Assembly: GCF_030684315.1 (NCBI RefSeq)
Contig: NC_081391.1
Location: 14,051,342 to 14,115,341 of the forward strand
Length of the DNA stretch: 64,000 bases
Direction: 5' to 3'
Origin: Stegostoma tigrinum
Lineage: Eukaryota
Of the stretch, positions 335 through 61,616 are shown piece after piece. Both the position numbers and the translations under genes were made by a program. Below the pieces are notes generated by a model. It worked only from the letters and a program-made list of their open reading frames with translations. It was not told the DNA's origin and did no database searches. Within the stretch, counting starts at the first letter, position 1, and each line of letters opens with the position of its first letter.

Positions 335-3300
335 ATGGCCTCCCAGATCAGTCAGAACTATCACCAGGATTGTGAAGCTGCTGTCAACAAGCAGGTTAAT
401 GTGGAGCTCACTGCCTCCTATCTCTATCAGTCTTTGGTGAGTTTTGTCTTGATGGAGTTGAAATTAAATCTATTCTGCAAAAATGAGCTGATCCTCTTGT
501 TTCTAATTAACTTCATAGTCTTGTAGATTTGAGGAGTTTAAGTTTGCACCTTGAAAAATCATTTTGGGATAAATGTAATGCCCTTTGGTGACAATGGATT
601 TTGATATTGATGTGCAGTATCTAATTCACCAGCTGGGATTGAGTGATAGATGGAGGGCAAATTGTTCTGTCAATTATTTTACAATTTACTGCCAGGTCTC
701 TGCCTGGTGGTAACTGTCGTTTTCCTCCCCAGAATTGACCAAACTTTACTAAAATTAGATGTAATGGTGTTGGGAGTTGTAGGCACCCCTTGGCTAGTCA
801 TCCTGTAACATTTTAATTTACCTTGATCACACTTAATTTGTGCTCTGATCCTAAATACACATGCCAGTTTCCATTCTGTGATGGAGAATGATGGCAGTGA
901 CTGGCTTCTCTGAGCATATGCACTTGTAACTTGCATTGAGGAGGCCTCAGATGTGGACTAGTTGGCTTTCTGCATTCTCAGTTCATGAATGGACTGTTAG
1001 TGGTCAGGAAGTCACTTGTTGTCCATTCCTCCAATAGATCAATACCCTCCTGTGAGTGCATGCACAGGGTGTCTGGAATAACCTGAGGTCTTCACTTCAC
1101 CAAAAAAGGTGAAGAATTGGAGTTTCAAATTCCCACGGTATGGGAAATAGTGCCTTTCTCCAGGGAGCACTGTGCCTATGGCCTCTCAAAATGGCAGGCT
1201 ATAATGGTTTGTAAATGTTGAAGCAGCTTTTGAAGGCTGCTAGATACCTGGTAGATAGTGGACACTGGGAGTGCATTCACTCACTCCCTTCAATGAGGTG
1301 GGCTGCTCTGTCCTGCATAGTGTCTACTTTGTGCATGTTGCAGCTCCACTTCTTGGGAAAAAGGGAGAATATTCATCCCTCCATGGGGCTTATGTCTGAG
1401 AAGCATTCTCTTCCCACTCTGAGGATGAAATCCCTGTACCCTTCCCTTTAGCAGGTGGGAACAGCTATCACCAATAAGCCTGTTGGGTCTTAACTGTTAG
1501 TGGTGTCCCATATCAATTGGGCAGCATGTGCCCAAACAACCTACTATTGTATATCTGTGAGATGCAGCTACCCGAGAAAAGCCAGAGAAATTTACATGAC
1601 TGTTTTTTGACAAAAGAAACTTCTCAGCCTGATCAGTTGGAACTAGATAACCTGCTCTAACAAGGTGTAGAGCTGGATGAACACAGCAGGCCAAGCACCA
1701 TCAGGGGGAGCAGGAAGGCTGATGTTTTGGGCCTGGACCCTTGAGAAATGGGGAGGGGAAGGGGTCCCTGAAATAGGAAGGGGTGGGGAGGTGAATGGAT
1801 GAGGGATAAAGAAACAGGTGGTGAGGAGACTCCAGTCTGAGGTAAGGATGGAGCCAATCAAGTCAAGTGAGTTGAGTAGGCCTGTCCGTGGGGATGGGAT
1901 TTGAGGTGGCGGGGGTCGGCGGGAGGTGGGGTGGTGTGGGGAAGTAGGTGGGAGGAAGGACGGACCAGTCGGGGAGGTGGGAACTAGCTGAGCTGTGATT
2001 GGGGGAAGGGAGATCTTTCAGCTTAAGTCCTCACTGATACCATTGGGCTGCAGGGTTCCCAAGCAGAATACAAGGTGCTGTTCCTGCAACCTTTGGGTGG
2101 CATTGGAGGCCCAGAATGAACATCAACTGTCCCCTCCTGCCCCTCTGAAGGGGAAGTAGTTTGTGACTGGGAGGTGCAGCTGCTGGTCACGAGCCCAGCA
2201 TAGGCACTCCACAAAGTGGTGTCAAGCCTCTGCTCGGATTTCCTGATGTAGAGGAGGCCACATTAGGAGCAGTGGATACAGCATACCTAACTGCAGGTGT
2301 GTAGGTCCACTTCATCTTGATGTGGAAGGTCTTGGGGCCTGGGATGAGGGGAGGTGTAGCACAATCTGTGTGGCAGGAAAAAAGCCCTGGCTAGTGGAAT
2401 GTACAAGGGAATCAGTGGTCTCTCCAGAAGGCAGCTAAGGTTGGAGAGGTAAAACATGTCTTTGTCAGATTGTAGATTGTATAAGTGCCAGAGGATGATG
2501 CACTGGGTCCTGGCATTGAGGTGGTACTGAAGGATGAGAGGATTCTGTTTTGGTTGTGTGAGGGATAAGATGCAAGACCGGTTGTGTTTTTCTTCCACTA
2601 AAGGGAAGTTACGCTCCCTCGGAAAACGAGGACATCTGGGATGCCCAGGAGTAGAATGCCTCCCCTCGGGGCTGGAGGTGAAGGAATTGGATTAGGGGAT
2701 GGCGTTTTCCTTCCACAGGAAGGTGGGTAAGGTGTATTCTAGGTAGCTGTAGGAGTCAGTAGGTTTGAAATATATCAAAGATTGATAGACAAACTTAAGG
2801 TTGAGGTAGAAGGCTCTAATGAATTAGAGGAACCGTTCAAGCTCCTTTGTGGGATGTAATGGAGGAAGATGTGGAGTTTATGGCCCATCTCCCTGTAGAA
2901 GGATTGTTCCACAAATCCTAACAGAAGCAGGCACAGCCTGGGCCCATGCAGGTGCCTATGGCCACCCCCTTCCTCTGTAGGAGGTGGGAGGAATTGAAGG
3001 AGAAGTTAGGGGTGAGGATGAGTTGGCTAGTGGACAAGGTTGTTGGTGAATGGGGACCAGTCAGACCTGCAGGATGAGAGAAGCAGAGGGCCTTCGGCTA
3101 TCTCCATGGGGAATGGATGAGGTTGGAGGCTGTGGGTGGGAGGTCATCTCCAGTGAAGTTGTAAATGGACTAGGAGATGGTTTGGTGGTCAGGGGTGGAG
3201 TCATGATGAAGGGCGGGGTGGTAGGAGGTATCGGCTGCTCTTCCACACAAGTATATGTGGCACTCCAGCTCCTGGCATTTCCTTAAACCCTGTTCAGTCA

Positions 3301-4907
3301 CGAACTTCATCCAATTCTGATGGTGCTTAGAGTGGAAATGCTCTTCTCTCTACAGACAAGAACAGGCATGGTCAATTCACAGGTTTTGGTCAAGGAATTT
3401 CAAGTTTGCCTGGTTACCAGGAGGAGGCGAGGGTTGTTTTTGATGATCCTTGAACTGGAGCTACTGGCTAATTGGACAATGGTTCTCATCCACCTTGATG
3501 TATTTAAAAAAACATGTCATGTTTATTGACTTCTCAATTTGATTGAAGGCTAAACCAGTCATGTCTGGCACCAATTGCATAATGTTTAATGGTTGTAACT
3601 TGTTTTCTCCCAGATGTCCTACTTTGACCGGGATGATGTTGCCCTCCCCCATGTCTCCCAGTTCTTCCAAGATCAGTCCCAGGAGAAGCAGGAACATGCA
3701 GAGAAGCTGCTGAAATTCCAGAATCGGCGTGGAGGCAGAGTCCTCCTCCAGGATGTGAAGGCTGGTGTTGGGTTTTTGGGGTGGGGGGAGTTGGGTGGTA
3801 GAGAGTGGCTGCTCCTCAGGGATGGCACAGTGACTCAGTGTTTACCATGCATGCCTCAGTGCCAGGGATCCAAGTTTGGTTCTTGGTTCTAGGCTCCAGT
3901 GAACGACTGGAGTTTACTTGTTCTTGCCATGTCCACATTGGCTTCACGGTTCAATGACGTGTGGGTTAGAAGGATTGCCATTTAAAATGCAGGGTTACAG
4001 GAATAAGGTGGGATTGTTCACAGAAGGGACTTGTAGCGACGAACGCAGTGGCCGTACCTGCTGATCGGGGATGAATAAAACGATGTAGTGACCTTTGTTA
4101 TTGTCACCATGTGTCAAATAGCCTGTTCCCATGCTGCAGAGATTCTGAAGCTTACCTGTCCTTCTCTCCATCCCCAGAAGCCAGAGAGGGCTGAGTGGGG
4201 TAACAGCCTGCAGGCAATGCAGGTTGCCCTGGATCTGGAGAAGAATGTGAACCAGAGTTTGCTGGATCTCCACCAACTCGCCACAGCCCAGACTGACCCT
4301 CATGTGAGCTTTCCCACCTCCTCGTTCTGATCACTGCTAGGCCCTCAGGGCAACACCTCATTGGTCTTTTGTAGATTAAAATTCACTGGGATACTTTGAT
4401 CACAATATCATATCTGAACAGTATGTTCATTTAATCAACATTAAAACAGCTCAGCAATGAGCTGAAATGGGAATTTGGATTCAGTACCACGAGTGATGTT
4501 GGCCACTGAATTCACTTTCAGGTCCACTTGCAGTAGAATGATCATTGTCTGTCACAGTTCAGCTCGGCTCCACTTCACAAACAACAAGGTGCATCTGGAA
4601 TGCTACTGTCCTCCCTGGCGCAACATCTAGATGTCAGTGGCTTTTCCAGCTGTCGAGAGCCAGTTATGGTGGGGTCTGTTTCGCAGTGGGAATTCTGAAA
4701 ATTTCCTGGATCATGCAAATGTACCAAGTTGCCATAATTCCTCTGTTGCAGCTGTGTGACTTCTTGGAGACCCACTATTTGGATGAGGAGGTGGAGATCA
4801 TCAAGCAACTTGGGGACTACATCACCAACCTGAAGCGCCTGGGAGCCCCTGAGAATGGGATGGGAGAGTACCTGTTTGACAGGCTCTCCCTGGAGGACAG
4901 CAGTTAG
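335..4907 (+). CDS. Ferritin subunit (L/M-like), copy A1; 4 exons, 176 aa; non-canonical GC donor after exon 2
   Basis: Exons 335-436 ([34 protein letters not shown]), 3614-3760 ([11 protein letters not shown]...[10 protein letters not shown]), 4178-4303 (KPERAEW...TDPH), 4752-4907 (LCDFLETHY...EDSS*). Vertebrate ferritin exon layout. Intron 2 begins GCTGGT rather than GT. Poly(A) hexamer is the variant AGTAAA (5035-5040). Confidence 0.85.
1659..3234 (-). mobile_element. Degraded Penelope-like retroelement in intron 1 of A1
   Basis: The minus strand near 2220-2287 translates as [20 protein letters not shown], a decayed GIY-YIG endonuclease motif. The terminus matches the palindromic elements at 7433 and 19084. 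Possible CTGCTCT target-site duplication at 1652-1658 and 3235-3241. Confidence 0.75.
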
Positions 4908-7429
4908 TGTGGCCTGGAGTACTGTCTGCTTGGTCTGAATGCATTCCCCACTTCACCCTGGGCAATCTGTCTCCTTCCAGGGAGAAGGGACTTGTAGCAA
5001 AGAATGTAATGGCTGTACCAGCTGAATGCAAATGAGTAAAATGATGTGTTTATCTTGGTTCTTGTCCATCATTCAGACAGCTGGACGCTGCAGGTTCTCA
5101 CCAATAGGCCTATGGGAAGAGATATCAGGCTCTGCTTTCTGCCCAGGTGCAGGAAACAGCTCAGCTGGGACTGAGATGAGTTCAACCTGACTCGTATCCT
5201 CCCAATGGGCCCTGACATGACCAGCATATTCTGTTTTACATTTGCTGCCTTTATCTCATGTGGACACAGCCTAAAGTTACTGGGAGCCGGTGAAGGTTCA
5301 AACCAAGGCCAGTACTGGTGGGCTGAGACCTACCCTGCCTTGTTACAGCCTACTGTAGTTGACAGCACTGAACAGTTCATTCCTCTGGTTGTGGGAGTTA
5401 AATATGCTGCTACCCTGAAGGGATCTTGGTGTAATTACCCTTAGCCTCGAGTCAATTCTCCTAGGAGCATTCTGAAGCTGGCCTAATGTGGCTTTTGTCA
5501 GTTTACTTTCTCTGACCTGTTCCAACACCTTCATTGCTTTTCTCACCCCTCCCACCACCCCACTCCTAGCAATAAACTTCCACCCTGCCAGTCTACAGCT
5601 GGGAAAATTCAGCCCCAACATTGACAGCACCCATATTCCATGGAGTTAGCTCAGGAAATTATCTTGAACTGTTACATGCTCATGTATGAGCTCAATACCA
5701 CTTCGAGCACCATCACTGTGTCTTTTGGAGTAACACAGCAACACTCGTGGTTCAATGCTGCCATTTGATTGGCTCTTGCTGCTAAAGCCAGCATTGAGCA
5801 CACTAAGCTGCTCCCTTGGTTCCTCTGTGCTTCACACACGCTGAGGGTTACTCCTGATGAAGGTAGATTTCACCCAATCACATTGAAGCATCAGTGCGAC
5901 TTGGAGAGGAGACCGTGAGATGCTGACTTTCCTGTACGACTGCTTCTTCTATCTTTTTGAGGTGTCAGAGAGATGATGGGTTGAGGAGGGGGTGATCAGA
6001 GCCAGCCTGGGGATTGTTCCAGGGAGTTGTGTAGCGAGTGCACACTGCAGCTTTCACTGAAGGTGTGGGTCGTTCAGGCACTGAATGTATTTGTTCCACT
6101 ACATAAAGTGTTTTATTTCAAATAATCTTGAGTCTTGGCTGTAGAATCTGTGAATCCGTGCAGTGCAGGAAGAGATTGTTCAGCCCATTTAGTCTGCACT
6201 GATCCTCTGTCCTCTGAACAGCATCTTGTTCAGACACACCCTGTCTTCTTGCCCCCATCTTTCTATCCCACAGCCATTGCAAAGTAAACTGCATGTCTCT
6301 GGACTGTGGGAGGAAAGGAACCCACACAGACACGGGGACGATGTACAGCCTCGTCAGAGTCGCCCATGACTGGAATTACATGTGGGTCCCGGGCACTATG
6401 CAGCAGCAGTGCTCATCAGTAAGATACCATGCCCCCTAAAGTAACAAAAACAGGAGAAGGTGGTGAGGAAAGTAAAGCAAGCTTTTCCTTTATAAGATGA
6501 GTTCCCAGATCAGTCAGAACTATCACCAGGATTGTGAAGCTGCTGTCAAAAGGCAGATTAATGTGGAGCTCACTGCCTCCGATCTCAATCACTCTTTGGT
6601 GAGTGCTGTCCCTGTGGGGTTAAAACTTGATCTATGTAGTTGAAGTAAATGTTTTCTCTTGAATTTAATTAACTGGACCCTCTCTCTTTGTAGATTGAGT
6701 TTTGTAGTCCTTTCCTAAATATTAATTCAGGATAAGGGCAATGTTACTATACCAATGGGGTTTGATAATGATGTACTCTGAAGCTGGGTCCCAGTTGGCC
6801 TTCAGAGATATGTGGAGGATGAAGTGTCCCTGGAGAAATTTGCCAGTTTGGTGTTTGAATTGGCAGTAGATGTCATTCCCTCTAAGATTACCAAATGTTG
6901 GTAGGGTTACTTCAGAAAGGTATTATATTGATCATACTGTGGGACTAGAATCACCCACTGGCTAGTTACCCTCTTTCTGACAGGTTTAAGTATCTGATTT
7001 TATATTTGCTTGCTTTTGTGGTGATACTTAAATATCAATTCTGATATTGACAATGATAATTCCCTATTGCAGTCTGCTGTGGCTAATCTGAGCAAACCTA
7101 CTTGAGGTTAGGCTGTGAGTGACTGGTATCTGACTTTTTAAAGTAGATCTCAGCTGAGACCTGCTTGGCATTTTGCACTCCCATCATGAGATGGGTGTGG
7201 CCTATCCCTGAACCTGTAGAAAGTTGATCTGCTTTAGTGTGTGGCGTGTTGAAGCTTCTGCAAACCATGTTTGCCTCCTGCCCCCTCACCCACACCCTGC
7301 ATCCCCTCTAGCTGCTGGAGTCTGAGATTCATGGTCCAGTCTCTATGCCATCCTGATAGGGAACAAACTGTCCCCTTTAGCCAGGTGGCAGTGAACCTGT
7401 AACTTTCCAATGGGTAGAATGTTTCAGAC

Positions 7430-7634
7430 AGTAGGAACAGCAGATGCTGGAGAATCTGAGATAACAAGGTGTAGAGCTGAATGAACACAGCAGGCCAAGC
7501 AGCATCAGAGGAGCAGGAAGGCTGATGTCTTGGGGCATGACCCTTCTGAAGGTGGGCCTAGGCCCAAAACAGCAGCCTTCCTGCTCCTCTGCTTGGCCTG
7601 ATGTGTTCATCCAGCTCTACATCATCGTATCTCA
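7430..7634. mobile_element. Older Penelope-derived palindromic insertion in intron 1 of B
   Basis: Imperfect inverted arms (tgtagagctgaatgaacacagcaggccaagcag / ctgcttggcctgatgtgttcatccagctctaca), flanked by a duplicated gggtagaatgt, with decayed hammerhead-like centre. Absent from the matching site in copies C and E. Confidence 0.7.
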
Positions 7635-7830
7635 AGGGGTAGAATGTGTTTGGAAGTTGTGTTGAAGTAACCTTGGTGAGTGCTGCAGGGGACCTGGTAG
7701 ATAATGGACCCTGAAAGGAGGTGGTGAATGCAGTCCCCATCAAGTGGGCTGCTCTGTCCTGGATGGTGTCTGCATCTTGAATGTTGCAGCTCCACTTCCA
7801 CAGACACATGGAGAATCTTCTTCACTCTCA
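7635..7830 (-). mobile_element. Ancient LINE ORF2 C-terminal remnant in intron 1 (ancestral to the array)
   Basis: The minus-strand peptide [14 protein letters not shown] resembles a LINE ORF2 C-terminal motif. The same remnant occurs near 1290-1380, 14460-14680, 32220-32450 and 58235-58460. Confidence 0.5.
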
Positions 7831-10800
7831 GCTTTTGTCTGTTAGAAAGAAGATGTCTCATGACAGATGGATGAAGCCCGTATAAACTCCATTTGGGAGG
7901 TGGGTACAGCTTTCATTGGTGAGCCAGTTGACGGGTTTTAATTACTGACCAGGGTCCCATTTCCCTTGGGGAACACGTGTGCCAATTATAAAATCCTTCC
8001 TATTCTCTCCTGCCACAGCTTGTCCCTACCCCGTTAAACAGACAAGAAATTTTGTTTGACTGCTTCTACATGAAGACAATAACTTCCCACCAGGCTTCCT
8101 CGACAACAAAACTCTTAGCTCCTGTTTCAAATATCAGAAGAATAGCCCTTCATAAACCTCAAGGCATTGGATTGTGAATATCTCGGTTCGGAAGTGAGTC
8201 ACATATGGGTGGACAAACAACAGAACGGTGCCAGCTGGGATAAGCCAAACTTTGTTGTCCAGCTTTGTGTTAACTAGTGACGTTAGATCAGCCATTATCT
8301 GTAGATACAGGTCACATTGGTTCTTTCTCTCCAATATTTGACCTTCCCTCAGTTTGATTCAATTTGTTTTGTTCATGTGACCCTTGTTCTCCCCCTTCTG
8401 GATGTGAGTGCACTAATTTTAGTGTGCTATAAACTATAACTGCAACAATCCAGAGGCAGTTACTGGGTAGGTTTTCCTTTGCACTATCTTGTTGTCGCTT
8501 TCTCTCATTCGCCTCTATTATATCTTGTAGTCATAAAATATACCGTACATTCAATCTCCCTGGTTTTGAGGCCACAGAAACCTTGCTTCCTCCTGGTTAT
8601 ATTGTTACAGCAGTGTCTAACATGTATTTCCATGCCAGCCCCAAAGGAGCAATAGTGTTACAGCTCCCCTACTCAAGTATAGCCTGCACTCCAGCTCCTG
8701 GTGCTTGTTTCAGCTGTTTGTTTGGCACTAATATTGTCCAATTCGAATGAAGGTTAGTGAGTGCAAACATGGCTGGATACAAGAAGAGCTATAATGCTGT
8801 GCCAGGCAGCCTGAGCAATTTACTGTTTGTTTTAAGCCAAACTTTTGCCAGTTTCCAACAGGAAATTGGGATTGTTCTGTTTGATCCCAGTTGAAGGATC
8901 TGCTGGACAGCTGGACATCATTGGGTTCTCAAACATGTTCACATACCAGGCAGTTAGTTTGCTGCAGAAGGCTGAACTAGAATTTGGAGTCAGTGCTGTG
9001 TTTAATGGGCTTTAACATGTTATCTCCCTTCCAGATGTCCTACTTTGACCGGGATGATGTGGCCCTCCCCCACTTCTCCAGGTTCTTCAAAGATCAGTCC
9101 CGGGAGAAGCAGGAACATGCAGAGAAGCTGCTGAAATTCCAGAATCAGCGTGGAGGCCGAGTCCTCCTCCAGGATGTGAAGGTTGGAGTTGGGTGGGAGG
9201 GTTGCAGCTGTGGAGGAGAGAATGGCAGCTCTTGTGGTGCTGCGTCCTGTTGGGATGTGAAAATCCTCTTTTGGCATGGCTTCCCTGTTTGATTTCTTTT
9301 GAAGGCAGTTTCTAAACAAGCCCTATTGTCCACCATGTCTATGCTGCCCACAAACATCAAACTAGATTAACACAATTTCCTGCACTTAGTCCACAGCCGA
9401 CTATCTTCTGGCATGAAGAAGTTGTTGAGATTAGCCTTCAATGTTGCTGGAGTAACTGCCTCCACTGACCCCACAGGTAATGCATCCCATACCTCTCCCA
9501 CCCTCGACTGGGTGGGTGGGTCCTCCAATCTCCTCAAACCTGTGCCATCTGGTCTTCATGTCTGCCATGGGGACTGTGTATTGTCCATCCTCCCTGATCT
9601 TCCACACTTCCATCAGATCACCATCCCAGGCTATCCAACCTCCCTCTCATCATTGTATTTTTGTTGTCTTTTTTTGCTTCCATCTTGGGCCAACATCCTG
9701 ATGACCCTCACCTGTACCCCCTGCAGTGCCACCTTGTCCCTCTGATGGTGGTTCTGGTCACCACACTACATTCCATCTTTGGTCTGGCCAATGCTGCCAT
9801 GTTTGTGGCAAGACTCATCCTTTCTACTGAGCCCCAAATCATGGAGACCAGCATCATGTCAGCCCCTTGCCCACTCTGTCTACCTTTGCTGAACCTTGAG
9901 GGATGGACTTGGGCATTTGTTGCTTGTCCCTTTTACTGTAAGCACATTGCTCCCTTCAATGAATTAAATAGTAGTGATGTCTGATCATCCTGCTCAGACA
10001 TGGATGAAGCCACCAGCACAGGTGAGACATAGATGCCTGGCCTGCAAGGTGCAGATTGGTACTCTACCTCAAGAGCCCTTGAGACTAAGGTGTCAATGTC
10101 CTCATCTAAATGCCAAATGGGCACTGGTGCAAACAGTTGAACTTTGTGTGAAATAAATCCCTAGCCCACAATGACTTCATGCTTCAGATCAAGGATAAAT
10201 GGAGCAAAGTGAAGTCACTTCACAAGTAATGAATGTGGGTTTTAGGGGTGGCACAGTTGCTCAGTGCCAGGGACACAGGTTTAGCTCTGGCCTCTGATGA
10301 CTGGTGATTACATGTTCAGGTTTCTTCCTACAGTCCAAATATGGGCAGGCTGGGTGAAGTAGCCATGGGGGAATTGCAGTGCAAATGGCTCAGGTAAATC
10401 TGAGATCTTCTTCAGAAGGTTGATTGCAGACTCAATGGGCTGAATGGCCTGCTCCCATGCTGCGGCGAGTCTCTGATTCTGAAGCTTAACTGTTCCTGTT
10501 TCCATCCTCAGAAGCCTGAGAGGGATGAGTTGGGTAACAGTCTGCAGGCAATGCAGGTTGCCCTGGATGTGGAGAAGAATGTGAACCAGAGTTTGCTGGA
10601 TCTACACCAACTCGCCACAGCCCAGACTGACCCTCATGCAAGCTTCACCTCTTCATTCTCATCACTGCCAGGCCTCCTCAACTTCATTGGTTGGTCTTTG
10701 TGGAGTGGAAATTCACAGACGTAACTTTGTCCAGATGCTACATTGTACCTTTGTCATCATAATTATGATGACAATGTTAAACTGCTCAACACCGAACTGA

Positions 10801-12649
10801 AATAGGAATTTGGATTACAGTCTGGTGGGAATGCTGATGTGACTTTTTTGACTGCTGAATTGGGGATTGTTGCACTATACAATACAACTTGGAGCTCTTT
10901 AAGAAGGTGAGATGAAGCAGCTGAAATGTGCTCACTGGCACAAATTCTCCACCTGTTAGCTAGATTTTCAGGGCTGTCTAGAGCTCGTTATGGCTCAGTC
11001 TTTTTCAGTAGGAATTGTGAAGTTGTCTTGGATAGTATAAATGTACCAAGTGTCATATTCCTCTGTTGCAGCTGTGTGACTTCCTGGAGACTCACTATTT
11101 GGATGAGGAGGTGGAGATCATCAAGCAACTCGGGGACTACATCACCAACCTGAAGCGCCTGGGAGCCCCTGAGAATGGGATGGGAGAGTACCTGTTTGAC
11201 AGGCTCTCCCTGGAGGACAGCAGTTAGTGTGGCCTGGAGTACTGTCTGCTTGTTCTGAATGCATTCCCCACTTCACCCTGGGCAACCCGTCTCCTTCCAG
11301 GGAGAAGAGGCTTGTAGCAAAGAATAATGGCTGTACCAGCTGAATGCAAATGAATAAAATCATTTATGATCTTGCTTATTGTCCATCATTCAGAGCACTG
11401 GATATTTTGGGAAATGTCTTATTGAGCTTGAAGGCAGTTCTCTTTCTGTAATTTGGCTGACCCAATTACTAATTGGACATGAAAACAACCTTTCAATGGA
11501 TGTATTTACTCACTCTCGATCATTGCACAGTAACTAGACGGACTTCCTTTTTCTCATGACACAGGAGACTCGAGACTTTCCCCTCTAAGTAGGATGAGGT
11601 TGGTGTTTCCCCAATTGTGGGGTGGAAAATCTTCCAGAGGTCAATTAGTACACTTCTGGATACTCTAGGTTCAATTGTCGATCAGAACTTGTCTTCCTTT
11701 TTGAGACAGGAAGTTCCCGTACCTGCTCGAAGGGATAAACCAGACGCCCATTCCATAGGATGTGGGATATCTACGTTCAATGCCAGGTTTCCCTTCCTAC
11801 AGGCTCCCCTCAGTCACCACGAGCAATGAGATTTGTCACTCGGACGATAATCTAATGGGAAGACAAGTCTGTGATTTGGAGGCTGGATCAGTTGACAAAA
11901 TGCTGGCGGAAGTAGATATATCAAGTTCTGCTCTAAATCCAGTTGCAGGAACCAGCTAAGTTAGGAAAGACACAGGCTTGACTCATCTGGTGTAACCTCC
12001 CCAGTGAGGCCCTACCATGACCAGTATTTTCTATTCTCAGCGTTGTTGTTTTTGGTCTCCTGTGGATGTAGCCTAGGGATCTTGGAGCCGGTTATGGATC
12101 AAAGCAGGACCAGCACTGGAGGCCTGTGACCTTCTCTTTCTCCCCATCTCTTGTTCCAGCCAACTGCAGTTGCACCCCCTACCCGGTTAAATCCCTCTTG
12201 ACATTTCTGAGGGAGGGTGGCTGGACTCACTGTAGGTTGGCTTTTTCATTCCTCCATCTGAGTAACATCGACCGCTCCATCTTTGCTCAAGAAGGAGTCA
12301 GTTCACACTGGGGCTGAGCTTTTCCCAAGAGCAATCCAAAATTGTCTTTCATGTGCCATCCTCCCCTTCTTCCTCCTCCTTTCTCCACCACACCCCACTT
12401 CTCTCCCAGCATTCACTCCAACAAGCTACCCAGCCCAGATCTGGGAAAACTCAGCCCAAACGTTCACAGAAGCCATTTACCAAGAGGTCAGCTGGAATTC
12501 CCCTGATCTGTATGGGATTACAATGTCTGCTCTCGATGCTAACAACAGGAAGTTGTAGTTTTTGCTGTAGAATCCCTCAATGCGGGCAGATGCCATTCAG
12601 CTGATTAAATTTGTAATGACCTACTGAGCAACCTCCTGCTCAGGGACAC

Positions 12650-13434: not shown

Positions 13435-16400
13435 ATGGCCTCCCAGATCAGTCAGAACTATCACCAGGATTGTGAAGCTGCTGTCAACAAGCAGATTAAT
13501 GTGGAGCTCACTGCCTCCTATCTCTATCAGTCTTTGGTGAGTGCTGTCCCTGTGGGGTTGGAGTTACTTCTGTTATGAAGTGAACTGTTTTTTTTTAAAA
13601 CAAACTAGATTAATACTCTTGTATAATAAAATGTGAGGCTGGATGAACACAGCAGGCCAAGCAGCATCTCAGGAGCACACGTTTAGCTTTTGTGCTCCTG
13701 AGATGCTGCTTGGCCTGCTGTGTTCATCCAGCCTCACATTTTATTATCTTGGAATTCTCCAGCATCTGCAGTTCCCATTATCTTTAACACTCTTGTAGAC
13801 TTGTTTGTTTTTTTTGTATCTCTCTTAGCTATTTCTTGATTCAGCGTAAATGTGGTGACAATGGGATATGATACTGATATGCAGCAACTGAGGCCCCAGT
13901 TGTCTCAATGATATATGGAGGGTGAAGCATCTTGTGATTTATCTTAAAATTCCTTTTTGGGCTGTGATTGCCTATAACTGGCTGTGGCTCTCCATAATTT
14001 TCTAAACTACTGTCAAGCTTTGATCCAGATAACCATTGGCTAACTACCTTTTTAAATCTGCCTTGATGTATCTGCTTTAGTTTTGTGCATGTAAATAAAC
14101 AAACATACTGGTTTTGGTATTTACAATAAGGTGTTGTAGTAATTTGACAAATCAGATTTTTTTAAGCTGAACTGAAGTCCTTGAGGTAAGACAAGCTGCT
14201 CCCTGCTTAAGTAGGTCTCCGATATTATTTTGGCTTTCTGTGCTCTATATCATGAAGTGGGTTTGATCCATCACTTCACAACCTATAGAAAGTTGACTTG
14301 TTATAGGTGCCTGCCCCCCCCGACCCCCCCGCCCCCAAAAGGGGGCTGCTGGAACATGCTGAGGCTATTGACCCAGAGGTGAAGAAATAAATGTTCTTCC
14401 TTTACCATTTAACCAGATAAAGAAACAAACTGGCTCCTCCCACCATGTGGTGGTGCCCCTGTGCCCTTCCAAGGAGTAGAATGTGTTCAGAAGGTGTTGA
14501 GGTCCCCTTGGTGAGTGCTGCAGGGGACCTGGTAGATAATGGACCCTGAAAGGAGGTGGTGAATGCAGTCCCCACGAAGTGGGCTGCTCTGTCCTGGATG
14601 GTGTCTGCTTCTTGCACGTTGCAGCTCCACTTTTCTCCAGACACATGGAGAATATTCATCACTCTCTGGGCTTGTGCCTATTGGAAGGAAGTCCTATCTA
14701 GGGACATGAGGATAAAGTCCCTATAACTACCTTTTTGGGAGGTGGGAATAGCTTTAACTAGTGAACCAATTGTTGGGTTTTAGTCACTGACCACTGTCCC
14801 AACTCAATAGGGAATCTTGTGTGCTGATAATAAAATCCCCACTATTCTTCACCTTCTACAACTTAACTACCCAATTAAACCACTTTTTTAACTTTTAGTT
14901 TGTATTTGAGGATTAAACTAACTTCTCACCAGGATTCTACCAAAGAACAACTTCTTCTTTTGATGTCAATAGACTGTTCCTAATCAGCAGTAACTTGTTG
15001 GATTGTGAATCTCAGTTGAAAAGTGAGTGAAATGAGTGGGGAAAACAATAGTTTAGCCTCTTGGAATAAGCTAAATTGAGCTCTCCAGCTTTGAACAAGT
15101 CAATAATCTATAGGTCACACAGTCCTGCAGATACCATTAGGTCTCCTGAACATTTGATCTTGTTTCAGTTGTGAATTTTAATGCTTTGCTTTGCAAGCTT
15201 CTGGCAACCTGAGTGCATGGCATAAACAAATGTGATAAACTATTGCTGCAACAAGCCAAAGGCTGTCACTGGGCAGGCTCTCCTTTAGCACCAAGATTCT
15301 CCTAATCGCCCTCATTCTCCTGCATACTGCAAACAGCATCTCTTGTAGAGCTGCTTTATGTAAAAAAAAAATACAGTACATCTGATCCAATTGGTTGCAG
15401 AAGACCTGTACCTACCAGCTATATTAATGTCCAGCATCTGCATGTTACTCTAGCACCAGGGGAGACATGTAATGACTGGAAGTTGCCTGACCCTGTGCAC
15501 ATCCTGCATTCCAGCTCCTGGCACTTGTTTAAACCCTATTCAGTTACCACTTCCATCCATTTCTGGAGGCTAGATGGTAGAAATGTGCTTTCAGCTTTTC
15601 TCTCCAGGCTGTGCCAGACACCCCCCCCCCAAACAATTCAGCAGGGTTTACAAACCAAAACACTGAATTTGCATCTTACGTGGAAGAAGCTGGGGTTGTT
15701 TGGTTTCCTCCAATTAAAGGAGCTGCTGGCTAATTTTGCAACACCATTAGTGAACATTGTAAGGTGTCAACAATTTTCAGCTGATTGAATCATTAGTTTG
15801 CTTTAGACTAAACCAGTCCTCCAGTTCTGAGCATGAGAAATGGGGTCAATGATGTGTTTAATGGGCTTTAACATGTTATCTCCCTTCTAGATGTCCTACT
15901 TTGACCGGGATGATGTTGCCCTCACCCATGTCTCCCGGTTCTTCAAAGATCAGTCCCAGGAGAAGCAGGAACATGCAGAGAAGCTGCTGAAATTCCAGAA
16001 TCAGCGTGGAGGCAGAGTCCTCCTCCAGGATGTGAAGGTTGGAGTTTGGGAGGGGGGCATGGTGTGGTGTGCAGGAATGGTAGCTCATGGTGTTTTCTGT
16101 TAGTAGTGACAAGATTTTCATGTGGTAAAGGATGTGAAGGTTGGAGTTGGAGAAGGCAGGCAGTGGGGAGGAGATGTGAGAAATGGCTGCTTATGGTGTG
16201 GTTTCATGTCCTGAAAGAAAGTGAAAACTGTTTTGTTTGGCTCCCCTCCTTTTGATGAAAAGGAAAGAAATCCTAGAAACACGCCTCTTGGCTCCCCTCC
16301 ACCTGCTGCTTCTCCACCCCCCCCACCCCCGCCCCCCCCACACCACCCCACCCCCGCCCCCCCACACCACCCCACCCCATGCTGACCCGATAAACACCAA

Positions 16401-48506: not shown

Positions 48507-51500
48507 ATGGCCTCCCAGATCAGTCAGAACTATCACCAGGATTGTGAAGCTGCTGTCAACAAGCAGATTAATGTGGAGCTCACTGCCTCCTATCTCTATC
48601 AGTCTTTGGTGAGTGGTGTCTCTGTTGGGTGAAACATACTTCTGTTCTGTTGAAGTAAACTCTTCCCCTTGGATGTAATTAAGTTGTCTATCTTATAGAC
48701 TGAGTTTTGTGGCTCCTACCTCTTTCTCAATGCAGGATGAGTGTGATGTTACTGTAACAATAGTTTGGTGTCTAATGTTACTCTAACTTGGGTCCCAGTT
48801 GGTTGTCAGTGAGATGTGGAGGGTGGAGTGTTCTTGTAGTTACTTGCCTGTCCCATGATGGTGCTGTGACTGGTGGTAATTATCGCTTCCTGTGGCTGTT
48901 TGAAACTTGAGGGAACTAATTTAAAAATGAATTGGGACTCACCATTGTGGGAATGGAAGCACCATCAGCTAGTCACTGCTTTTCTTTTCCCTCTTGTAGC
49001 CTTGTTTCTATTTGAATTTTGTGGGGATCTGAAGTAAACCTGCCAATTGATACTGAGAATCTTGGTTTCCTATTGCAATCAGCTTAGAATAGGCTTGTTC
49101 TAGCCCTGCAGAGCTGGGCTGAGAAGTGGCAAATGGAGTTTAATGCAGACAAGTGTGAGGTGATGCTCTTTGGTAGGAGTAACCGGAAGGCAAAGTACAG
49201 GGCTAATGGTAAGATTCTTGGCAGTGTAGATGAGCAGAGAGATCTGTGTCGATAGACACGGATTGTTGAAAGTTGCCACCCAGGTTGACAGGGCTGTTAA
49301 GGCAGTGTTTTGGCTTTTATTAATAGAGGGATTGAATTCTAGAACCAAGAGGTTATGGTGAAGCTGTACAAAACTCTGGTGTGGCAGCACTTGGAGTATT
49401 GTGTACAGTTCTGGTTGCTGCATTATAAGGATGTGGAAGCTTTGGATAGGGTGTAGAGGAGATCTACTAGGATGTTGCCTGGTATGGAGGGAAGGCCTTA
49501 TGAGGAAAGGCTGAGGTACTTGAGGCTGTTTTCATTGGAGAGAAGAAGGTTGAGAGGTGACTCAATTGAAAGATATAAAATAATCAGAGGGGTAGATAGG
49601 GAGAGCCTTTTCTGTGGATGGTGATGGCGAGCATGAGGGGGCATAGCTTTAAATTGAGGGGTGATAGATATAGGACAGATGTCAGAGTTAGTTTCTTTAC
49701 TTGGTAGCAAGGGAATGGAATGCTTTGCCTGCGACAGTAGTAGATTTGCCAATTTTAGGTACACTTAAGTCATCATTTGACTTTAGCATATGGACTTACA
49801 TGGAATAGTGTAGGTTAGATGGGCTTGATCGGTATGACAAGTTGGTGCAACATGAAGGGCCTGTACTGTGCTGTTATGTTTGAAGTTCAGATCAAACTGG
49901 GTGAGGTTGTGACTGGTATCTGATTAAGCAGATCTACTTTGCTTTTTTTCATACTGATGGGGTGGGTGTGGGCTGTCTGTATGTCAAGTGTTGGAGCTTT
50001 TCAAAGGCACAGCACTACCATGGGGCTGAGAATGTGCTGAGGGTACTGACCCAGTGACTATGGAAAGAAGCTTATCCCTGTTGTGTTTGGCCTGACTCTA
50101 AACTAACTGGCCCCTTTTTCCCCAGGTGGTGGAGTGCCTGTGCCCTTCCAAGGGGTAGAATGTGTTTAGAAGGTGTTAGAAGTAACCTTAGTGAGTGTTG
50201 CAGGGTGCTGTCTGGGCTCGTGCCTGTCAGCAGGAAGTCCTGTCATGATGAGGATCAAGTCCCTGTCAGCCCCACTTTGGGAGGTGGGAACAGCTTTCAT
50301 TGAGCCAGCAGTTGGGTTTCAATCGCTGACCCACTGTCCTAACACACCTTGTAAGCATGTGCCAGGAATGAAATCCCTACCATTCTACATCTTCCAAGTG
50401 CCCATTTAAATGACAATGATAAATTGTGCTTGGGTGTTTGCATTTGAGAATTAAAGCAACTTTTTTCAGCAGGATTCGTAAGAATGTGATTCTAAATGGC
50501 TGCTTCCAATAGCAGACCTGTTAAACCTGAATATGTTGAATTGTGAACATCCTAGTTAAGAAATCTACAGGACTTTGCCTGTTGGATTAAGTCAACAGTG
50601 GTTTTTCCAGGTTATTGTTTTAATGAGTGATCTCCTCTGGAGAGTAGTTGATCTGCAGGTCACTGTCATATTTGTGATGTGATCAGTTTGTTTCTTTCAT
50701 GGGTAATGGTACAAGTTCCCAACAGTCTGAGTCAGTACAGCTGTTTTAGATGCAACAATCCAAAGGCTGTCCCTTGGCAGGCTTTCCTTTGGACTTTTCT
50801 GGCCTTTGTCAAAGGAGCAATACAGTGCCCTGCAGCTGTTCTATTGGTGTACATCCTGCACTCCAGCTCCTGGCATTTCTTGAAACCCTATTCAATCACT
50901 AATTTATCCCGTTTCTGGTGGAGGTTCATCAGTAAAAACATCAATTCACATTTGTTCTCACCAAATGCTGTGCTAGACCCCCTTGAGCAATTTACCAGGA
51001 GTTTCAAACCAAAATAAAACACATGGTATTTACAGCTTATCTAGAGGAAGCTGGGATTGTTTTGATTTTTTTCCGATTCAACAGCAACTGTTCAAAACTG
51101 GGTTCTGAATTGTTAATGCATCAGGTACTGAACAGCTTACTGTCAGTTTGACTTTTTTAGAATGCTCAAGTAGCCCTATAGTTCTGAACTGAAATTGGAC
51201 CATGACTTGTTAATGGGCTTTACCTTGTTCTCCCTTCAAGATGTCCTACTTTGACCGGGACGATGTTGCCCTTCCCCATTTTTCCCGGTTCTTCAAACAT
51301 CAGTCCCAGGAGAAGCAGGAACACGCAGAGAAGCTGCTGAAATTCCAGAATCAGCGTGGAGGCAGAGTCCTCCTGCAGGATGTGAAGGTTGGAGTTGGGT
51401 GGGCTGGGGGATGGGATGGTCATGGCTGCTCTTGTGGTGTGGTTTCAAGTCAGTGACAAGGTTTTCATTTGAGTCAAAACTTTGTTCAGCCTGATTGATC

Positions 51501-53504
51501 TCCTTTTTGAAGCCAGTGTAGAAAGAAGCCCTTTGGCCCACCATGTCTATACTGACCCCACAAACACTAAACCACATTAATCCCATTTACCTGCCCTTGG
51601 TCCACAGGCCACTGTCCTGGCACTAAGTACATGTCCAGCAAGGCCTTAAACTGATCTGGAGTAGCTGTCTGTCTCCACCACCATCCAAACCTTTGTGGTT
51701 CGTCTCATATTTCTAACTCCCCCTCGGAGTGGGTGAGGAGGGTGAAGAGTTTCCTCCAATCCCCTCGAACCTGCTTACTCCACAAACCTGTATTCTCTCT
51801 GGTCTTGCTGTCTGCCATGGGGAAGACATTCCATCAACTGGCCACTCTCTCTCCAATAATTACATCAGGTCACTCCCTCAGCCTTTCCTGCTCCACAGAA
51901 AATCCCAGCCTTTCTAACTTCCAATCAATGGCTCTTGGGCAACCTCACCAGCATCCCCCTGCAGTGCCATCCTGTCCTTGTGACTGTTGAGGCCAAAGAG
52001 GGAATAATGTGGTGACCAGAAAAACAAACTGTGAAGACTGGTCCCCTTCCTGTTCCACCCCACCAAACTAATAGAGGTTGCTTGCCCTCTGTCACTGTTA
52101 CACCCTGTTGACCTTGTCTGAACTTTGAGGGATCTATGGTTGTGGGCCTTTCTTAACTGTTAGCAGCACAACACACTTTGCAAACACCTCGCTGTCCCTT
52201 TGATGAATTAAATAGCCGTGATGTTTCTGATCATCCTGCTCGGGCATGTATGAAGCCACCAGCACAAGTGGTACTTGAACCTTGGCCTTGTCAGCCAGAG
52301 ACAGGGGCACTACCACTGTACCATGACAGCATTTAGGATTCACTCGTGAATATCCTCGCAATTCCATCAGATGGACCCTGATGCAAATCTTGTCATTATC
52401 CCCCACAATGACCTGTTATTCACCTTCCTCCTTCAGATCAAGGACCGACAGGCAAGGTGAAAGCAATTCTGAAGGAACTGTTCTTCAGCTGTGCTCCAGG
52501 GCTGCCTCAGGGGCTAGCAGTGTTCTCAGTGCTAGGGACACAGGTCTGGATCTGGCCTCTGGTGAGGGGCTGGTGTTTACATGTCCTCCCCTTGTCTGCG
52601 TTGGTGTCCTCATAGTATAAGAGGATTGGCCATCTGAAACGCAGGGTTACAGGAATAGGGTGGGAGAAGGACGGGTTGGGTTCCTCTTCAGAGTAGTTAC
52701 AGACTGATACACATTGTAGAGATTCTGAAGCTTAACTGTCCTTCTTTCCCTCCTCCAGAAGCCAGAGAGGGATGAGTGGGGTAACAGCCTGCAGGCAATG
52801 CAGGTTGCCCTGGATCTGGAGAAGAATGTGAACCAGAGTTTGCTGGATCTACACCAAGTCGCCACTGCCCAGACTGACCCTCATGTAAGCTTCACCTCCT
52901 CATTGACTTCACTGCTAGGCCCTCAGGGCAACACCTTCATTGGTTGGTCTTTTGTGGATTAGAAATTCAGTTAGACTTTGTTTTTGTGCAGATGACATGG
53001 ATCACTTCAGATCCATAGTGATTACAAAATCATTGCTGAGCAGTTGACTCCAAGTCTGTATTTTAACTTGTAAACCTGTGGGGAGGACTGAGGGGATATT
53101 GGTGACTGAATTCTCATTCAGGACCACTGCAGTGGAATGACTTTTATCCATCACAAGTCAACTCTGCTCCAGTAAATAAACAGCAAGATGAAGCTGCTAA
53201 AAAGCAGTTGTCCTCATTGCACAATTTCTCCAGGCATTGGCTCTAGTCATCCCTGACAATCTCCCTCGATATGCACGTTTTTCAGTGGGAATCGTGAAGT
53301 TGTCTTGGATAGTGTTGATGTAACAAGTGTCATGTTCCTCTGTTGCAGCTGTGTGACTTCCTGGAGACCCACTATTTGGATGAGGAGGTGGAGATCATCA
53401 AGCACCTTGGGGACTACATCACCAACCTGAAGCGCCTGGGAGCCCCTGAGAATGGGATGGGAGAGTACCTGTTTGACAGGCTCTCCCTGGAGGACAGCAG
53501 TTAG
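48507..53504 (+). CDS. Ferritin subunit (L/M-like), copy D2; intact, 176 aa
   Basis: Exons 48507-48608, 51241-51387, 52759-52884, 53349-53504; GT-AG introns. TATA at 48413, AATAAA at 53632-53637. Confidence 0.92.
49106..49880 (+). mobile_element. CR1-type LINE 3' fragment in intron 1 of D2 (same insertion as in D1)
   Basis: Collinear with 22445-23221. Confidence 0.85.
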
Positions 53505-57178: not shown

Positions 57179-57364
57179 AGGTCAAAGGTCATTCAGCAAT
57201 TCCATCATCGACCAGTTGTCAACTGTGATTCGTTTCTGGATCCAGTTCCCATCCTGCACTGATTGGACGTGGCAGCTGATCAACTGATCATCAAGAGTGA
57301 TTGGCCATCACTGATGATGTCATTTCCTGCTTCATAAAAAGAGGGTCTGCCCCTGGGGTATAAA
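57179..57364 (+). promoter_or_regulatory. Ferritin E2 promoter
   Basis: Perfect DR1 at 57179-57191, two GATTGG boxes, TATAAA at 57359-57364. Confidence 0.7.
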
Positions 57365-57451
57365 TAGAGTCCCACGGGAATGATGTTGATTGTTCTTCCT
57401 AATTTTGTTATTTTGGTGGTGAAGAGAATAAAAGAAATTTATTGTCACAAG

Positions 57452-60400
57452 ATGGCCTCCCAGATCAGTCAGAACTATCACCAGGATTGTGAAGCTGCTG
57501 TCAACAAGCAGATTAATGTGGAGCTCACTGCCTCCTATCTCTATCAGTCTTTGGTGAGTGCTGTCTCTCGGGGTTAAACGTATAAATCTGTTCTGTTGAA
57601 GTAAATTCTTTGCCTGGCCTCTAGTGAAGCTGACAATCTAGTAGATTGAGGTTTTGTGGCTCCTACCTAAATATCAGTTCAGGATAGAGGTGGTGTTACT
57701 ATCACGATGGTGTAGGATACTGATGTATGTTAACTCAGGTCCCAGTTGGCCTTCAGTGGTATCTGGAGGGTAAAAGCCTCTTGCTTTTGTTTTCTTTCTG
57801 ACACAAGTTTCCTGACTTCATTTGCCTGATCTCTGTGGTGGTCCTAAACAAACATGCTGATTTTTTTTAACACTGACAATAACAATAACTTCCCTGTTGC
57901 AGTGGCCCTTGTTAGTCTGAACAAACCTGAGGCTAGTCTGTGACTGGTATCTATTTTATGTGGATCTCCTTCATTGAGGCTGACTTGGCTTTACTTGTAT
58001 TTATTCAAGAGGTGGGTGTGGCCTATCCCGTTCCTACTGAGAGTAGATCTGCTGTGTGTGAGAAATGTTCGATCCCCTCTCTGCCCCCTCTCCACCCCAC
58101 CCCACCCCACACTGGGGCTGCGGGAATGTGCTGAGGCTATTAGCCCAGTGACATTGAAGAAATGGAGGTTGTTCCCATATCATTTAGCTTGACCTAAAAC
58201 AAAATGTCCCCTCTATCCTGGTGGTGATGTGACTGTGCCCTTCCAAGGAGTAGAATGTGCTTGGAAGGTATGTGTTGAAGTAACCTTGGTGAGTGCTGCA
58301 GGGGACCTGGTAGGTAATGGACCCTGAAAGGAGGTGGTGAATGCAGTCCCCATGAAGTGGGCTGCCCTGTCCTGGATGGTGTCTGCTTCTTGCATGTTGT
58401 AGCTCCCCTTCTACAGACACATGGGGAATATTCATCTCCCTCTGGGCTTGTGCCTATTGGAAGGAAGTTGTCTTGTAATGAGGACTAAGTCCCTATAAGC
58501 CTCACTTGGGAGGTGGGACCGCTTTATTGGTGAGCCAGTTGTTGGGGTTTAATCACTGTGTCCCACCTCTACTGGCACATGCTTCCCAAGGATAAAATCC
58601 CGACTATCTTCTGCCACAACTTGTAACTACCCACTGAAACCACAGATATTTGCTTGCCTGAGTGTGGTTTTTGGATTTGAGGATTCAAGTAACTTTTCAG
58701 GAGTCCTTCCCCAGAATATAACTCTTAGCTGATGCTTCCAATAGCGAGCATTAGCTCTTAAACCCTTACATCGAATTGTGAACGTGACAGTTTAGATATG
58801 AGTCACATGGGCTGAAAACCTACAGGATTTTTTGCCTGTTTGGGTAAAGTCAGGGCAAGTGTTTTTCCAGGTTACTGTTTTCACTAGTGACGTTATCTAC
58901 AGGCCACTAATAGTTGACATTTGATCATTTGTTTTGCAATTTGTTTCAGTCATGTGACTTGGTGCAAGCTTTTGACAGCCTGAGTTTGCACTATTTAGGC
59001 AGAGCAATAACCCACTGCTGCAACGATCCAAAGGCTGTTACTGGGCAGGCTTTCCTCGGCATTATCTTAGTGCCAAACTCCAAACTGGAGACAGCACACC
59101 TTTGTAGAGTTCATGTGTACACTTACATCCCAATCTCGTTGATCCCGGGTTTGCAGAAAACATGCTCCCTACTAGTCGTTGACTACAGCAGGGTTTCAAC
59201 ATCTTTTTTTCCAGTTTTCCCCAAAGGCAAAACATAGTACCTTGCGTCTTGTAGTTGAGAACTAGAATGGGGAGTGAGCCAGTGATGTCTGATGTAATTT
59301 TAACTTGATCTTCCAGATGTCCTACTTTGACCGGGACGACGTTGCCCTCGCCCATTTCTCCCGGTTCTTCAAAGATCAGTCCCAGGAGAAGCGGGAACAT
59401 GTAGAAAAGCTGCTGAAATTCCAGAATCAGCGTGGAGGCCGAGTCCTCCTCCAGGATGTGAAGGTTGGGGTTGGGTGGTGGGGGAGTGCAGGGGGGAATG
59501 GCTGCTCTTGCGGTGTCATCTCCAGTGACAAGATTTTCAGATCCTGAGCGAGTGTGAGAAGTTCTTTTGCTTGGCTTCCCTGTTTGCTCTCCTCCATCTC
59601 CAGTGTTTCAGCATTTATAAAAGCCCTCTGGTCCACCAGGCCTATGCTGACCCAGCAAAGACCGAACTGTACTCACCCTGTTCTTGGTCCAGGCCCTACT
59701 ATACCCTAGTGTTTAGCACTCGCCCAGCTAGTCCTTTAAACAGTGCTGCAGTAGCCATTTCCAGCACTTTGTTCTTCCGTTCCCCAACACACCCACCAAA
59801 TTTCCTCCAATCCCCTCTATCCTGCTTCCTCAAACCTGTGCCCTCTGGTCTTAGTGTCTGCCATGGGGAAGACATTTTCCCCATCTACTGTCCAGACTTC
59901 CTTGTCTTCCATCAAACAACCACCTCAGCCTCACCTGCTCAAAGGAAACCCCCCAGCCCATCCAATCTCTCTCCTCAATGGATTTTCTGTCTTGGCGAAA
60001 CAACCTGGGGACCCTCACCAGCACCCCCTGCAGTACCATCCTGTCCTTCTGACTAGTGAGGACAACGATAGAATGCAGCAGAGGCCGGAAGAACAATTTT
60101 CATAAAATGTGTTCAAAGGACTTGTCCCTGTGCTGTTCCTCACAACCCTGCCCCAAACTAACACATGTTACTTGGCCTATGTCCCCTTTCACACACAGTT
60201 TGCCTTGTGTGAGCATTGAGGGATCGATGATCCTGTGTTTATTGTAAGCACATTACTGCCCCCCACAATGAATTCAAGTAATGATGGTTCTGACCATGCT
60301 GCTCGGGCATGTATGAGGCCACAAGCACAAGTGAGACTTGAACCTCAGCCTTGTCAACCGAAGCTTGGGACACGACCGCTACTTCCCCCACAGCCCTTGG

Positions 60401-61616
60401 GATTCACTCCTGAATATCCTTTTTAAGACTCCAGCAGATGGACACTGGTGCAAATGACTAATCTGGTACATATTTATTCCCTGTGGTACAAGGATACGTT
60501 CCTGAGCTTCCGGCTTCAGGTCAAGGATAAATGGGGCAAGGTGAAAGGAGTCACCAAGTAGCTAATGTTTTCTTTACCTGGACTTCAGGGATGGCACAGT
60601 GGCTCAGTGGTTGGCACTGTTGACTCAGTGCCAGGGGCACCAGTTTGGTTCTGGCCTGTGACAAGAATTTAAACATTATCCCAAAGCATGGCTTCCCCAC
60701 ACAGGAGAAAAGAGGATTGGCAACTTGAAATGCAGGTTACACGAACAGGGTGGGAATGGGACCAGATGGGATGCTCTTCAGCAGTTATGGTCTCAATGGG
60801 GTGAATGGCCAGCTCCCATGCTGCAGGGATTCTGTTTCTGAAGCTTACCTGTCCTTCTCTCCATCCCCAGAAGCCAGAGAGGGATGAGTGGGGTAACAGT
60901 CTGCAGGCAATGCAGGTTGCCCTGAATCTGGAGAAGAATGTGAACCAGAGTTTGCTGGATCTACACCAACTCGCCACAGCCCAGACTGACCCTCATGTAA
61001 GCTTCACCTCCTCATTCACATCACTGCTAGACCCTCAGGGTAACATTTCATTGGTTGGTCTGTGTGGATTGGAAATTCACTGATGTAACACTTTCCATCC
61101 ATTACTTTCCTGAACTATTGTAACATTGTAATCAGTATGATCCCAAGTGATCAATGAGGTATAAGGGGAATTTGATCTCTAATCTAGTGGAAGTGCTGAA
61201 ATGACGTTGGCCACTGAGTTCTTCATTAGTATCATTGCAGTGGAATGATCATTGTCCATCACAATCCAACTCAGCTCCATTTCACAAACAGCAAGATGGA
61301 GCAGCTGACATGTTGTCCTCACTGGCACAAATTCTCCAGGTGTTAGCTCGCTTTTCAGGGCTGTCCAGAGCTAGTCATGGCTAAGTCTGTCTTGCAGAGG
61401 GAATTCTGAAATTGTCTTGGATAGTATAAATGTACCAAGTGTCATATTCCTCTGTTGCAGCTGTGTGACTTCCTGGAGACTCACTATTTGGATGAGGAGG
61501 TGGAGATCATCAAGCAACTCGGGGACTACATCACCAACCTGAAGCGCCTGGGAGCCCCTGAGAATGGGATGGGAGAGTACCTGTTTGACAGGCTCTCCCT
61601 GGAGGACAGCAGTTAG
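57452..61616 (+). CDS. Ferritin subunit (L/M-like), copy E2; intact, 176 aa
   Basis: Exons 57452-57553, 59317-59463, 60871-60996, 61461-61616; GT-AG introns. TATA at 57359. The poly(A) position reads AATGAA. Confidence 0.92.

Follow-up and report, generated by a model that had tools for sequence, protein, structure and literature searches.

The locus described here raises the question of why a shark should keep a long tandem array of ferritin genes whose products lack the glutamate that bridges the two irons of the ferroxidase centre. A 64-kb stretch of zebra shark (Stegostoma tigrinum) DNA, referred to below as the window (contig C50; C50:14051342-14115341), contains eight ferritin genes of four exons apiece, all on the + strand and together spanning positions 335-61616. 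In the numbering of the human heavy (H) chain, all eight encode Lys at position 62 (AAG) and Glu at position 141 (GAG), and the codon coordinates given in an initial annotation of the window were confirmed. We conclude that these genes belong to a shark-wide subfamily of the middle/light (M/L, non-H) group of ferritins, which is present here in about 170 tandem copies without an iron-responsive element (IRE), and that this K62 subfamily is real, selected and transcribed.

The residue register is unambiguous, since a near-identical database protein (P0008) aligns with the bullfrog M chain without a gap over 176 residues. In this alignment the Lys faces the bridging Glu of the bullfrog chain and the Glu faces its Gln; the light (L) chains in the PDB have K and E at positions 62 and 141. 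The E62K and Q141E assignments, previously made by eye, are thereby upheld, and the alternative that structural alignment would place Glu at position 62 was checked and found not to hold. The predicted structure of P0008 is a standard ferritin fold (predicted local distance difference test score 87; template modelling score 0.93-0.94 to frog M in Foldseek), and the array family has the four-helix bundle, short fifth helix and four-exon gene of animal 24-mer ferritins. The ligand set of active H and M chains (E27, Y34, E62, H65, E107 and Q141) is incomplete, with K62 and E141 in each of the 44 intact copies sampled across the array. Other strings that the initial annotation took as L-like carry no weight, because they are frequent in intact H/M chains: of 106 database proteins whose E62/Q141 site is intact, 23 contain EAAVN, 44 DEWG and 14 LF.RL.L, while a further string occurs in 18 of these proteins and in only 3 of 114 mammalian L chains.

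Within the window, the frame is open in six of the eight copies. Copies 3 and 6 are frameshifted by deletions that put E107 and E141 out of frame; the earlier statement that E107 is kept throughout is therefore correct for the open-frame copies only. As had been noted, Y34 is lost in copy 2 alone (Y34N) and H65 in copy 5 alone (H65R). Copies 1 and 2 have one GC splice donor each. Judged by their sequence, five or six of the eight copies look functional.

The array extends far beyond the window, from 12,987,143 to 14,403,990 on C50 (1.42 Mb). Approximately 0.56 of the 1.42 Mb was sampled, yielding 68 units, 63 of them with four exons and 44 with an intact frame, and extrapolation from unit spacing in the sampled part gives a total of about 170 copies. 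A sequence pattern around E141 produced 197 forward matches, 25 of which were seen outside the array, and a stricter K62 pattern produced 120. The amplification to high dosage in a cartilaginous fish that was first suspected from the window is thus borne out. K62, E141, E27, E64, E107, C130 and D131 are present in 44/44 intact copies, and H65, Y34 and E134 in 43/44 each, so that the reported conservation of the three-fold channel residues C130, D131 and E134 extends to the sampled array. E61 is found in 39 copies, position 57 is D or H, and position 60 is Q or R; the K62 codon is a synonymous AAA in one copy.

One explanation for such an array is that it is neutral and decaying, K62 being a fixed loss-of-function change spread by unequal crossing-over. 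Broken or partial units (24 of the 68 sampled), 79 variable positions among the 44 intact copies and 127-kb repeated blocks in the positions of pattern matches would fit this. Against it stand a mean ratio of non-synonymous to synonymous polymorphism of 0.27 for the intact copies, a conserved promoter, spliced transcripts, and an intact multi-copy K62 clade whose ten genera span the deepest split among sharks, and we consider neutrality very improbable. Separately, at 13.68-13.91 Mb of C50 the K62 matches recur at an offset of ca. 127,028 bases, which suggests that the segment was duplicated very recently or that the assembly duplicates it.

To follow transcription, contigs from public sequencing runs were compared with the gene models. 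In run X10, contigs span all four exons plus the 3' untranslated region (UTR) with scarcely any unique intron sequence, and have GT..AG joints at all three predicted introns; the joints were seen for the copy 7 model and are evidence at the level of the family rather than of a single copy. Loose ends of the X10 contigs match a second ferritin array, described below, and therefore both families are present in this run. In runs X1, X2 and X3, cover of the gene was sparse or came from repeats. Three of the four runs covered a repeat element that lies at window positions 49024-49930, within the first intron of copy 7. An intronless, decayed retrocopy of the K62/E141 type lies at C2:16740223-16740546 (L005), and retrocopies of the E62 type are found on C11, C5 and C2; inherited retrocopies imply germ-line transcripts.

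In a 39-row tree, K62 proteins form one clade (support 100/100) with members from Heptranchias, Heterodontus, Scyliorhinus, Mustelus, Carcharodon, Cetorhinus and four carpet-shark genera. The 31 clade members from the six non-carpet-shark genera are without exception K62/Q141. Among carpet sharks, K62 is present in 67/68 proteins and E141 in all 60 that cover the site, and the carpet-shark subclade (100/99) is nested among Q141 members. Thus, the two L hallmarks arrived at different times, K62 being shark-wide and E141 restricted to carpet sharks. The trees place the K62 clade outside the vertebrate H clade; nesting within H chains, which the initial annotation had proposed to check by phylogeny, was not found, and the family is not orthologous to FTH1, even though databases name the zebra shark copies heavy- or middle-like. 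No K62 was found among the chimaera, ray, coelacanth, lungfish and sturgeon proteins retrieved, a thin sampling. K62 also occurs separately in M-type paralogues of lizards and marsupials, so the change recurs. Database entries for this lizard and marsupial paralogue (P0366, P0506-P0515, P0132) are named FTHL17-like or heavy-chain-like, and representatives are K62/Q141 with E27 and H65 kept. Four shark-type ferritins filed under Salmonella or Aeromonas names (P0313, P0316, P0337, P0100) are probably contamination.

The K62 clade has kept other parts of the site. E27 is present in 83 of the 84 database proteins that cover it (D in the remaining one) and H65 in 93/99 proteins from the ten genera. 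It could be proposed that the centre has been rewired, E27 and H65 binding one metal at site A and the carpet-shark E141 serving as a new site B carboxylate, with slow oxidation or use of another metal, e.g., zinc, as the result. The constancy of E27 and H65, which holds for the intact zebra shark copies too (44/44 and 43/44) and contrasts with the loss of both in mammalian L, is what such a centre would need. However, K62 occupies the bridging position, outside carpet sharks 6 of the 31 proteins have C, R or Y in place of H65, and retention may be structural or reflect low overall divergence. In addition, Q141E is reported to impair catalysis in frog M, and the mutant is present in the PDB. 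A rewired centre is accordingly improbable in our estimate, though less so than a neutral array.

A second ferritin array lies on C50 at approximately 19.95-21.6 Mb, on both strands, and encodes chains with intact E62/Q141 (172 and 228 pattern matches); further copies are on C216, which perhaps duplicates a portion of this E62 array as an unplaced sequence. A genome-wide search with the Rfam IRE_I model, in which 82 candidates only were scored, returned two matches, one in an H-type gene on C20 that falls within the H clade in the tree, and one in a single, intact M-type gene on C50, where the E62 array ends. The same model found no IRE in the window copies, and none was found in eight E62-array loci scanned; a 5'-leader IRE, which is a feature of FTL, is thus missing from the K62-array copies examined. 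RUVBL2 (18.55 Mb) and BAX (26.43 Mb), which we take to flank human FTL, are on C50 as well. Distances from the K62 array are ca. 4 Mb to RUVBL2, 7 Mb to the IRE-bearing gene and 12 Mb to BAX. The M/L chromosome carries both arrays, as relatives without an IRE, alongside an intact housekeeping M gene. The presence of this gene disposes of the suggestion that the array is a one-to-one orthologue of L. Glycogen synthase, whose human gene GYS1 presumably adjoins FTL, was found on C20 and C33 and not on C50 in a search of reduced sensitivity, and lends no synteny support; on C20 it is ca. 0.9 Mb from the H-chain gene (18.05 and 19.0 Mb).

A single divergent ferritin was observed 50 kb past the IRE-bearing gene (C50:21659128-21670211, + strand; loci L113-L114). 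Its K27, L62, N65, Q107 and N141 make up a second kind of dead centre. Bullfrog L ferritin is among the best PDB matches of its exon 4, and E27K and E107Q are, we assume, frog-L features; by its sequence, it may be orthologous to the amphibian "lower" subunit.

The two arrays have related promoters. The z-score was at least 4 in 33 of 48 pairs of K62- and E62-array promoters (maximum 9.5), against shuffled sequences that keep dinucleotides only approximately, and CCAAT-like, TGATGTCATT and TATA elements occur in a common order; one of the eight E62-array promoters had no match. K62-array promoters did not resemble those of the IRE-bearing, H and K27 genes (18 pairs, z no higher than 1.6), and the 3' UTRs of the two arrays were likewise dissimilar (z at most 0.6).

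Whether K62 in sharks descends from the same event as K62 in tetrapod L was addressed with trees built on subsets of the proteins: 77 rows (quick search only), 39 rows, and 39 and then 38 rows after addition of amphibian and lizard proteins named "light chain, oocyte isoform-like" (oocyte-L; P0373, P0451, P0486). The 38-row set leaves out the poorly predicted P0375, and P0451 and P0486 in it are partial. Mammalian L and the three oocyte-L proteins form a clade (99/98). Trees without oocyte-L had placed mammalian L inside a group of E62/Q141 genes from crocodile and lizard (97/91, 98/96); this was a sampling artefact, dissolved by the three oocyte-L proteins. In the best tree from all columns, the shark K62 clade is sister to tetrapod L (93/79), and support for this grouping drops to 21/0 when columns 62 and 141 are removed; the grouping thus rests on the trait itself. 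Forcing K62 proteins to group with the E62 array costs 8.0 log-likelihood units and is not rejected by the approximately unbiased (AU) test (p 0.083), and neither is grouping them with mammalian L in a smaller set (p 0.145 and 0.084). Even a topology uniting sharks with L needs two changes to account for E141. Since E141 is also confined to carpet sharks, its match to L is, on this evidence, convergent.

For K62, one reading is that the shark clade is the cartilaginous-fish orthologue of tetrapod L (FTL and oocyte-L) with the same working role, E62K having occurred once in the jawed-vertebrate ancestor and sharks retaining an E27/H65 intermediate. The sister position described above and the AU results are compatible with this, as are the K62 and E141 of oocyte-L (2/2 covering proteins each, one of which retains E27), the residues L37, V102, Q119 and T125 common to some oocyte-L and K62-clade proteins, and the location of the array on the RUVBL2/BAX chromosome. 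The dead, bullfrog-L-like paralogue suggests that old paralogues persist at the locus. On the other side are the collapse of tree support without the two columns, the double origin of E141, the lack of K62 in the other fish groups retrieved, a promoter homologous to that of the shark E62 array, and the missing IRE, although an IRE is typical of vertebrate ferritin mRNAs. Furthermore, P0008 is 75% identical to the shark E62 array, compared with 62-65% for mammalian L and 60% for lizard oocyte-L. We regard this orthology as a minority possibility, and hold the same tentative view of the proposal that the K62 clade is a surviving cartilaginous-fish branch of an L lineage that started in the ancestor of jawed vertebrates as a single-E62K ovarian ferritin, was amplified in sharks in this intermediate form, and acquired Q141E on two occasions, once in tetrapods and once in carpet sharks. 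Because the promoter is homologous to that of the E62 array and the IRE is missing, we favour an independent origin of K62 from the ancestor of the shark E62 array over shared descent with tetrapod L. Of the two options left by the initial annotation, an L orthologue or intermediate and a convergent L-like subfamily, convergence therefore holds for E141; for K62 the trees reject neither, and promoter homology tips the balance toward convergence.

Our preferred reading, to which we give roughly an even chance, is that the K62 family would be an L-like partner chain of low ferroxidase activity for bulk iron storage in the ovary, E62K having probably arisen in a duplicate of the E62-array ancestor. 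The salt bridge between K62 and E107 is a feature of the L chain. In the shark chains, where K62 replaces the bridging Glu while E27, H65, E107 and the three-fold channel are retained, the Lys would similarly fill the di-iron pocket and pair with E107 and, in carpet sharks, with E141 too. Such a centre is predicted to be inactivated: oxidation of Fe(II) would be slow or nil, yet the chain would remain a stable subunit of the shell. K62 chains could then assemble with the intact E62/Q141 chains of the second array into mixed 24-mers, as mammalian L does with H. Loss of the IRE together with massive gene dosage would make bulk ovary ferritin independent of cell iron, most likely for stocking the large yolky egg. 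As to history, E62K would most likely have preceded the squalomorph-galeomorph split and Q141E followed later in carpet sharks, in a stepwise parallel of tetrapod L.

Several observations weigh against this reading. E27 and H65 are retained, unlike in 114/114 mammalian L chains. E62 ligates both irons, and ferroxidase activity of the H chain is abolished by E62K combined with H65G, according to the relevant section of PMC6929972; this knock-out is a double mutant, and the shark chains keep H65 as well as E27. Of the carboxylates that line the inner surface in mammalian L, the shark chains have an incomplete set, with D or H at 57 and Q at 60, and a strong role in nucleation is therefore doubtful, if the nucleating set is, as we presume in part, 57, 60, 61 and 64. 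Run X10 has no RNA label or stated tissue, and its contig depth is no measure of expression. The ovary evidence comes from another species in which the K62 and E62 arrays were not separated. To these are added the restricted number of candidates in the IRE search, the tree that joins K62 proteins to tetrapod L, the likelihood cost of grouping them with the E62 array, and the fraction of broken units.

Comparison with known ferritins shows where the family stands. Mammalian FTL has K62, E141 and E107 in 110, 108 and 110 of 114 proteins, four exons and a place on the RUVBL2/BAX chromosome; unlike the shark family, it has neither E27 nor H65 (0/114 each) and has more inner-surface carboxylates. 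FTL is typically a single IRE-controlled gene, as stated in part of PMC4117605, whereas the shark family, 62-65% identical to it, comprises about 170 copies without an IRE. The same part of that source describes fish as having only H and M chains and teleost M as orthologous to mammalian L. Oocyte-L shares K62 and E141 and, in the frog protein, E27, and its name refers to oocytes, in agreement with the published ovary expression of shark clusters; it groups with mammalian L, is ca. 60% identical to the shark chains and is represented by three sequences, partial or of low quality. Fish and amphibian M (H') chains and the shark E62 array are closest in sequence and structure (69-75% identity, best PDB and Foldseek matches), and the E62 array has the same promoter design; these chains differ in keeping E62 and Q141 and in being active ferroxidases, and the single M gene of the shark is IRE-bearing. 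Ferritins without iron ligands, E62K included, are described for sponges and other invertebrates in the portion of PMC8395497 that deals with them.

The expansion of shark ferritins is already in print, and so is ovary expression. The ferritin section of Sahm et al. 2024 reports 155 FTL and 179 FTH1 copies in the Greenland shark, in clusters that show synteny with those of the white shark and of which the largest is expressed specifically in the ovary (bioRxiv 10.1101/2024.09.09.611499). Like our data, it describes an ancient expansion to >150 copies in few clusters in distant sharks. In contrast to the present analysis, it names FTL and FTH1 by human similarity, and that section is silent on ferroxidase residues, IREs and a K62 clade. 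No description of the K62 shark clade, or of its step-by-step resemblance to L, was found in a literature search that left subscription papers and preprint supplements largely outside.

Gene models of the window are collected in Table 1; names of promoter motifs are presumed consensus matches and the elements are putative. At its borders, the K62 array has a Sec7 gene on the left and a SET-domain exon on the right. A cytohesin-like exon had no PDB or Pfam match, and a Sec7 search then placed such a gene to the left of the array. On the same side, a TG/CA microsatellite of ca. 10 kb abuts the first array gene (L036-L037, C50 ~12.974-12.984 Mb).

Table 1. Ferritin gene copies and the copy 1 promoter in the 64-kb window (window coordinates; codons in human H numbering)
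Feature	Positions	Strand	Exons	K62 codon	E141 codon	Remarks
Copy 1 promoter and short 5' leader	53..334	+				Array-typical, without IRE; putative DR1-like repeat 53-64, inverted CCAAT (Y-box-like) 133-139, E-box 146-151, TATA 232-236
Copy 1	335..4907	+	335-436, 3614-3760, 4178-4303, 4752-4907	3686-3688	4788-4790	176-aa open frame; GC donor after exon 2
Copy 2	6497..11227	+	6497-6598, 9035-9181, 10512-10637, 11072-11227	9107-9109	11108-11110	Frame open; Y32D, Y34N, W93L; GC donor after exon 3; conserved promoter missing
Copy 3	13435..18317	+	13435-13536, 15891-16037, 17575-17699, 18162-18317	15963-15965		Frameshifted by 1-nt deletion early in exon 3
Copy 4	21853..26996	+	21853-21954, 24738-24884, 26252-26377, 26841-26996	24810-24812	26877-26879	Intact
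Copy 5	31448..35599	+	31448-31549, 33301-33447, 34856-34981, 35444-35599	33373-33375	35480-35482	Frame intact; H65R
Copy 6	40784..45351	+	40784-40885, 44071-44215, 44616-44741, 45196-45351	44143-44145		Frameshifted by 2-nt deletion late in exon 2
Copy 7	48507..53504	+	48507-48608, 51241-51387, 52759-52884, 53349-53504	51313-51315	53385-53387	Intact
Copy 8	57452..61616	+	57452-57553, 59317-59463, 60871-60996, 61461-61616	59389-59391	61497-61499	Intact

Two large, co-regulated arrays appear to give sharks a division of labour like that of H and L. The reported expansion can be reread accordingly: in the zebra shark genome about four in ten array copies (ca. 170 versus 228 matches) lack the bridging ligand, despite their heavy- or middle-like database names, and some 400 IRE-less ferritin genes raise the question of what need the shark ovary has for them. 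With either origin of K62, sharks provide natural intermediates, K62/Q141 and then K62/E141 with E27 and H65 intact, which make the order and the purpose of the L-inactivating changes testable.

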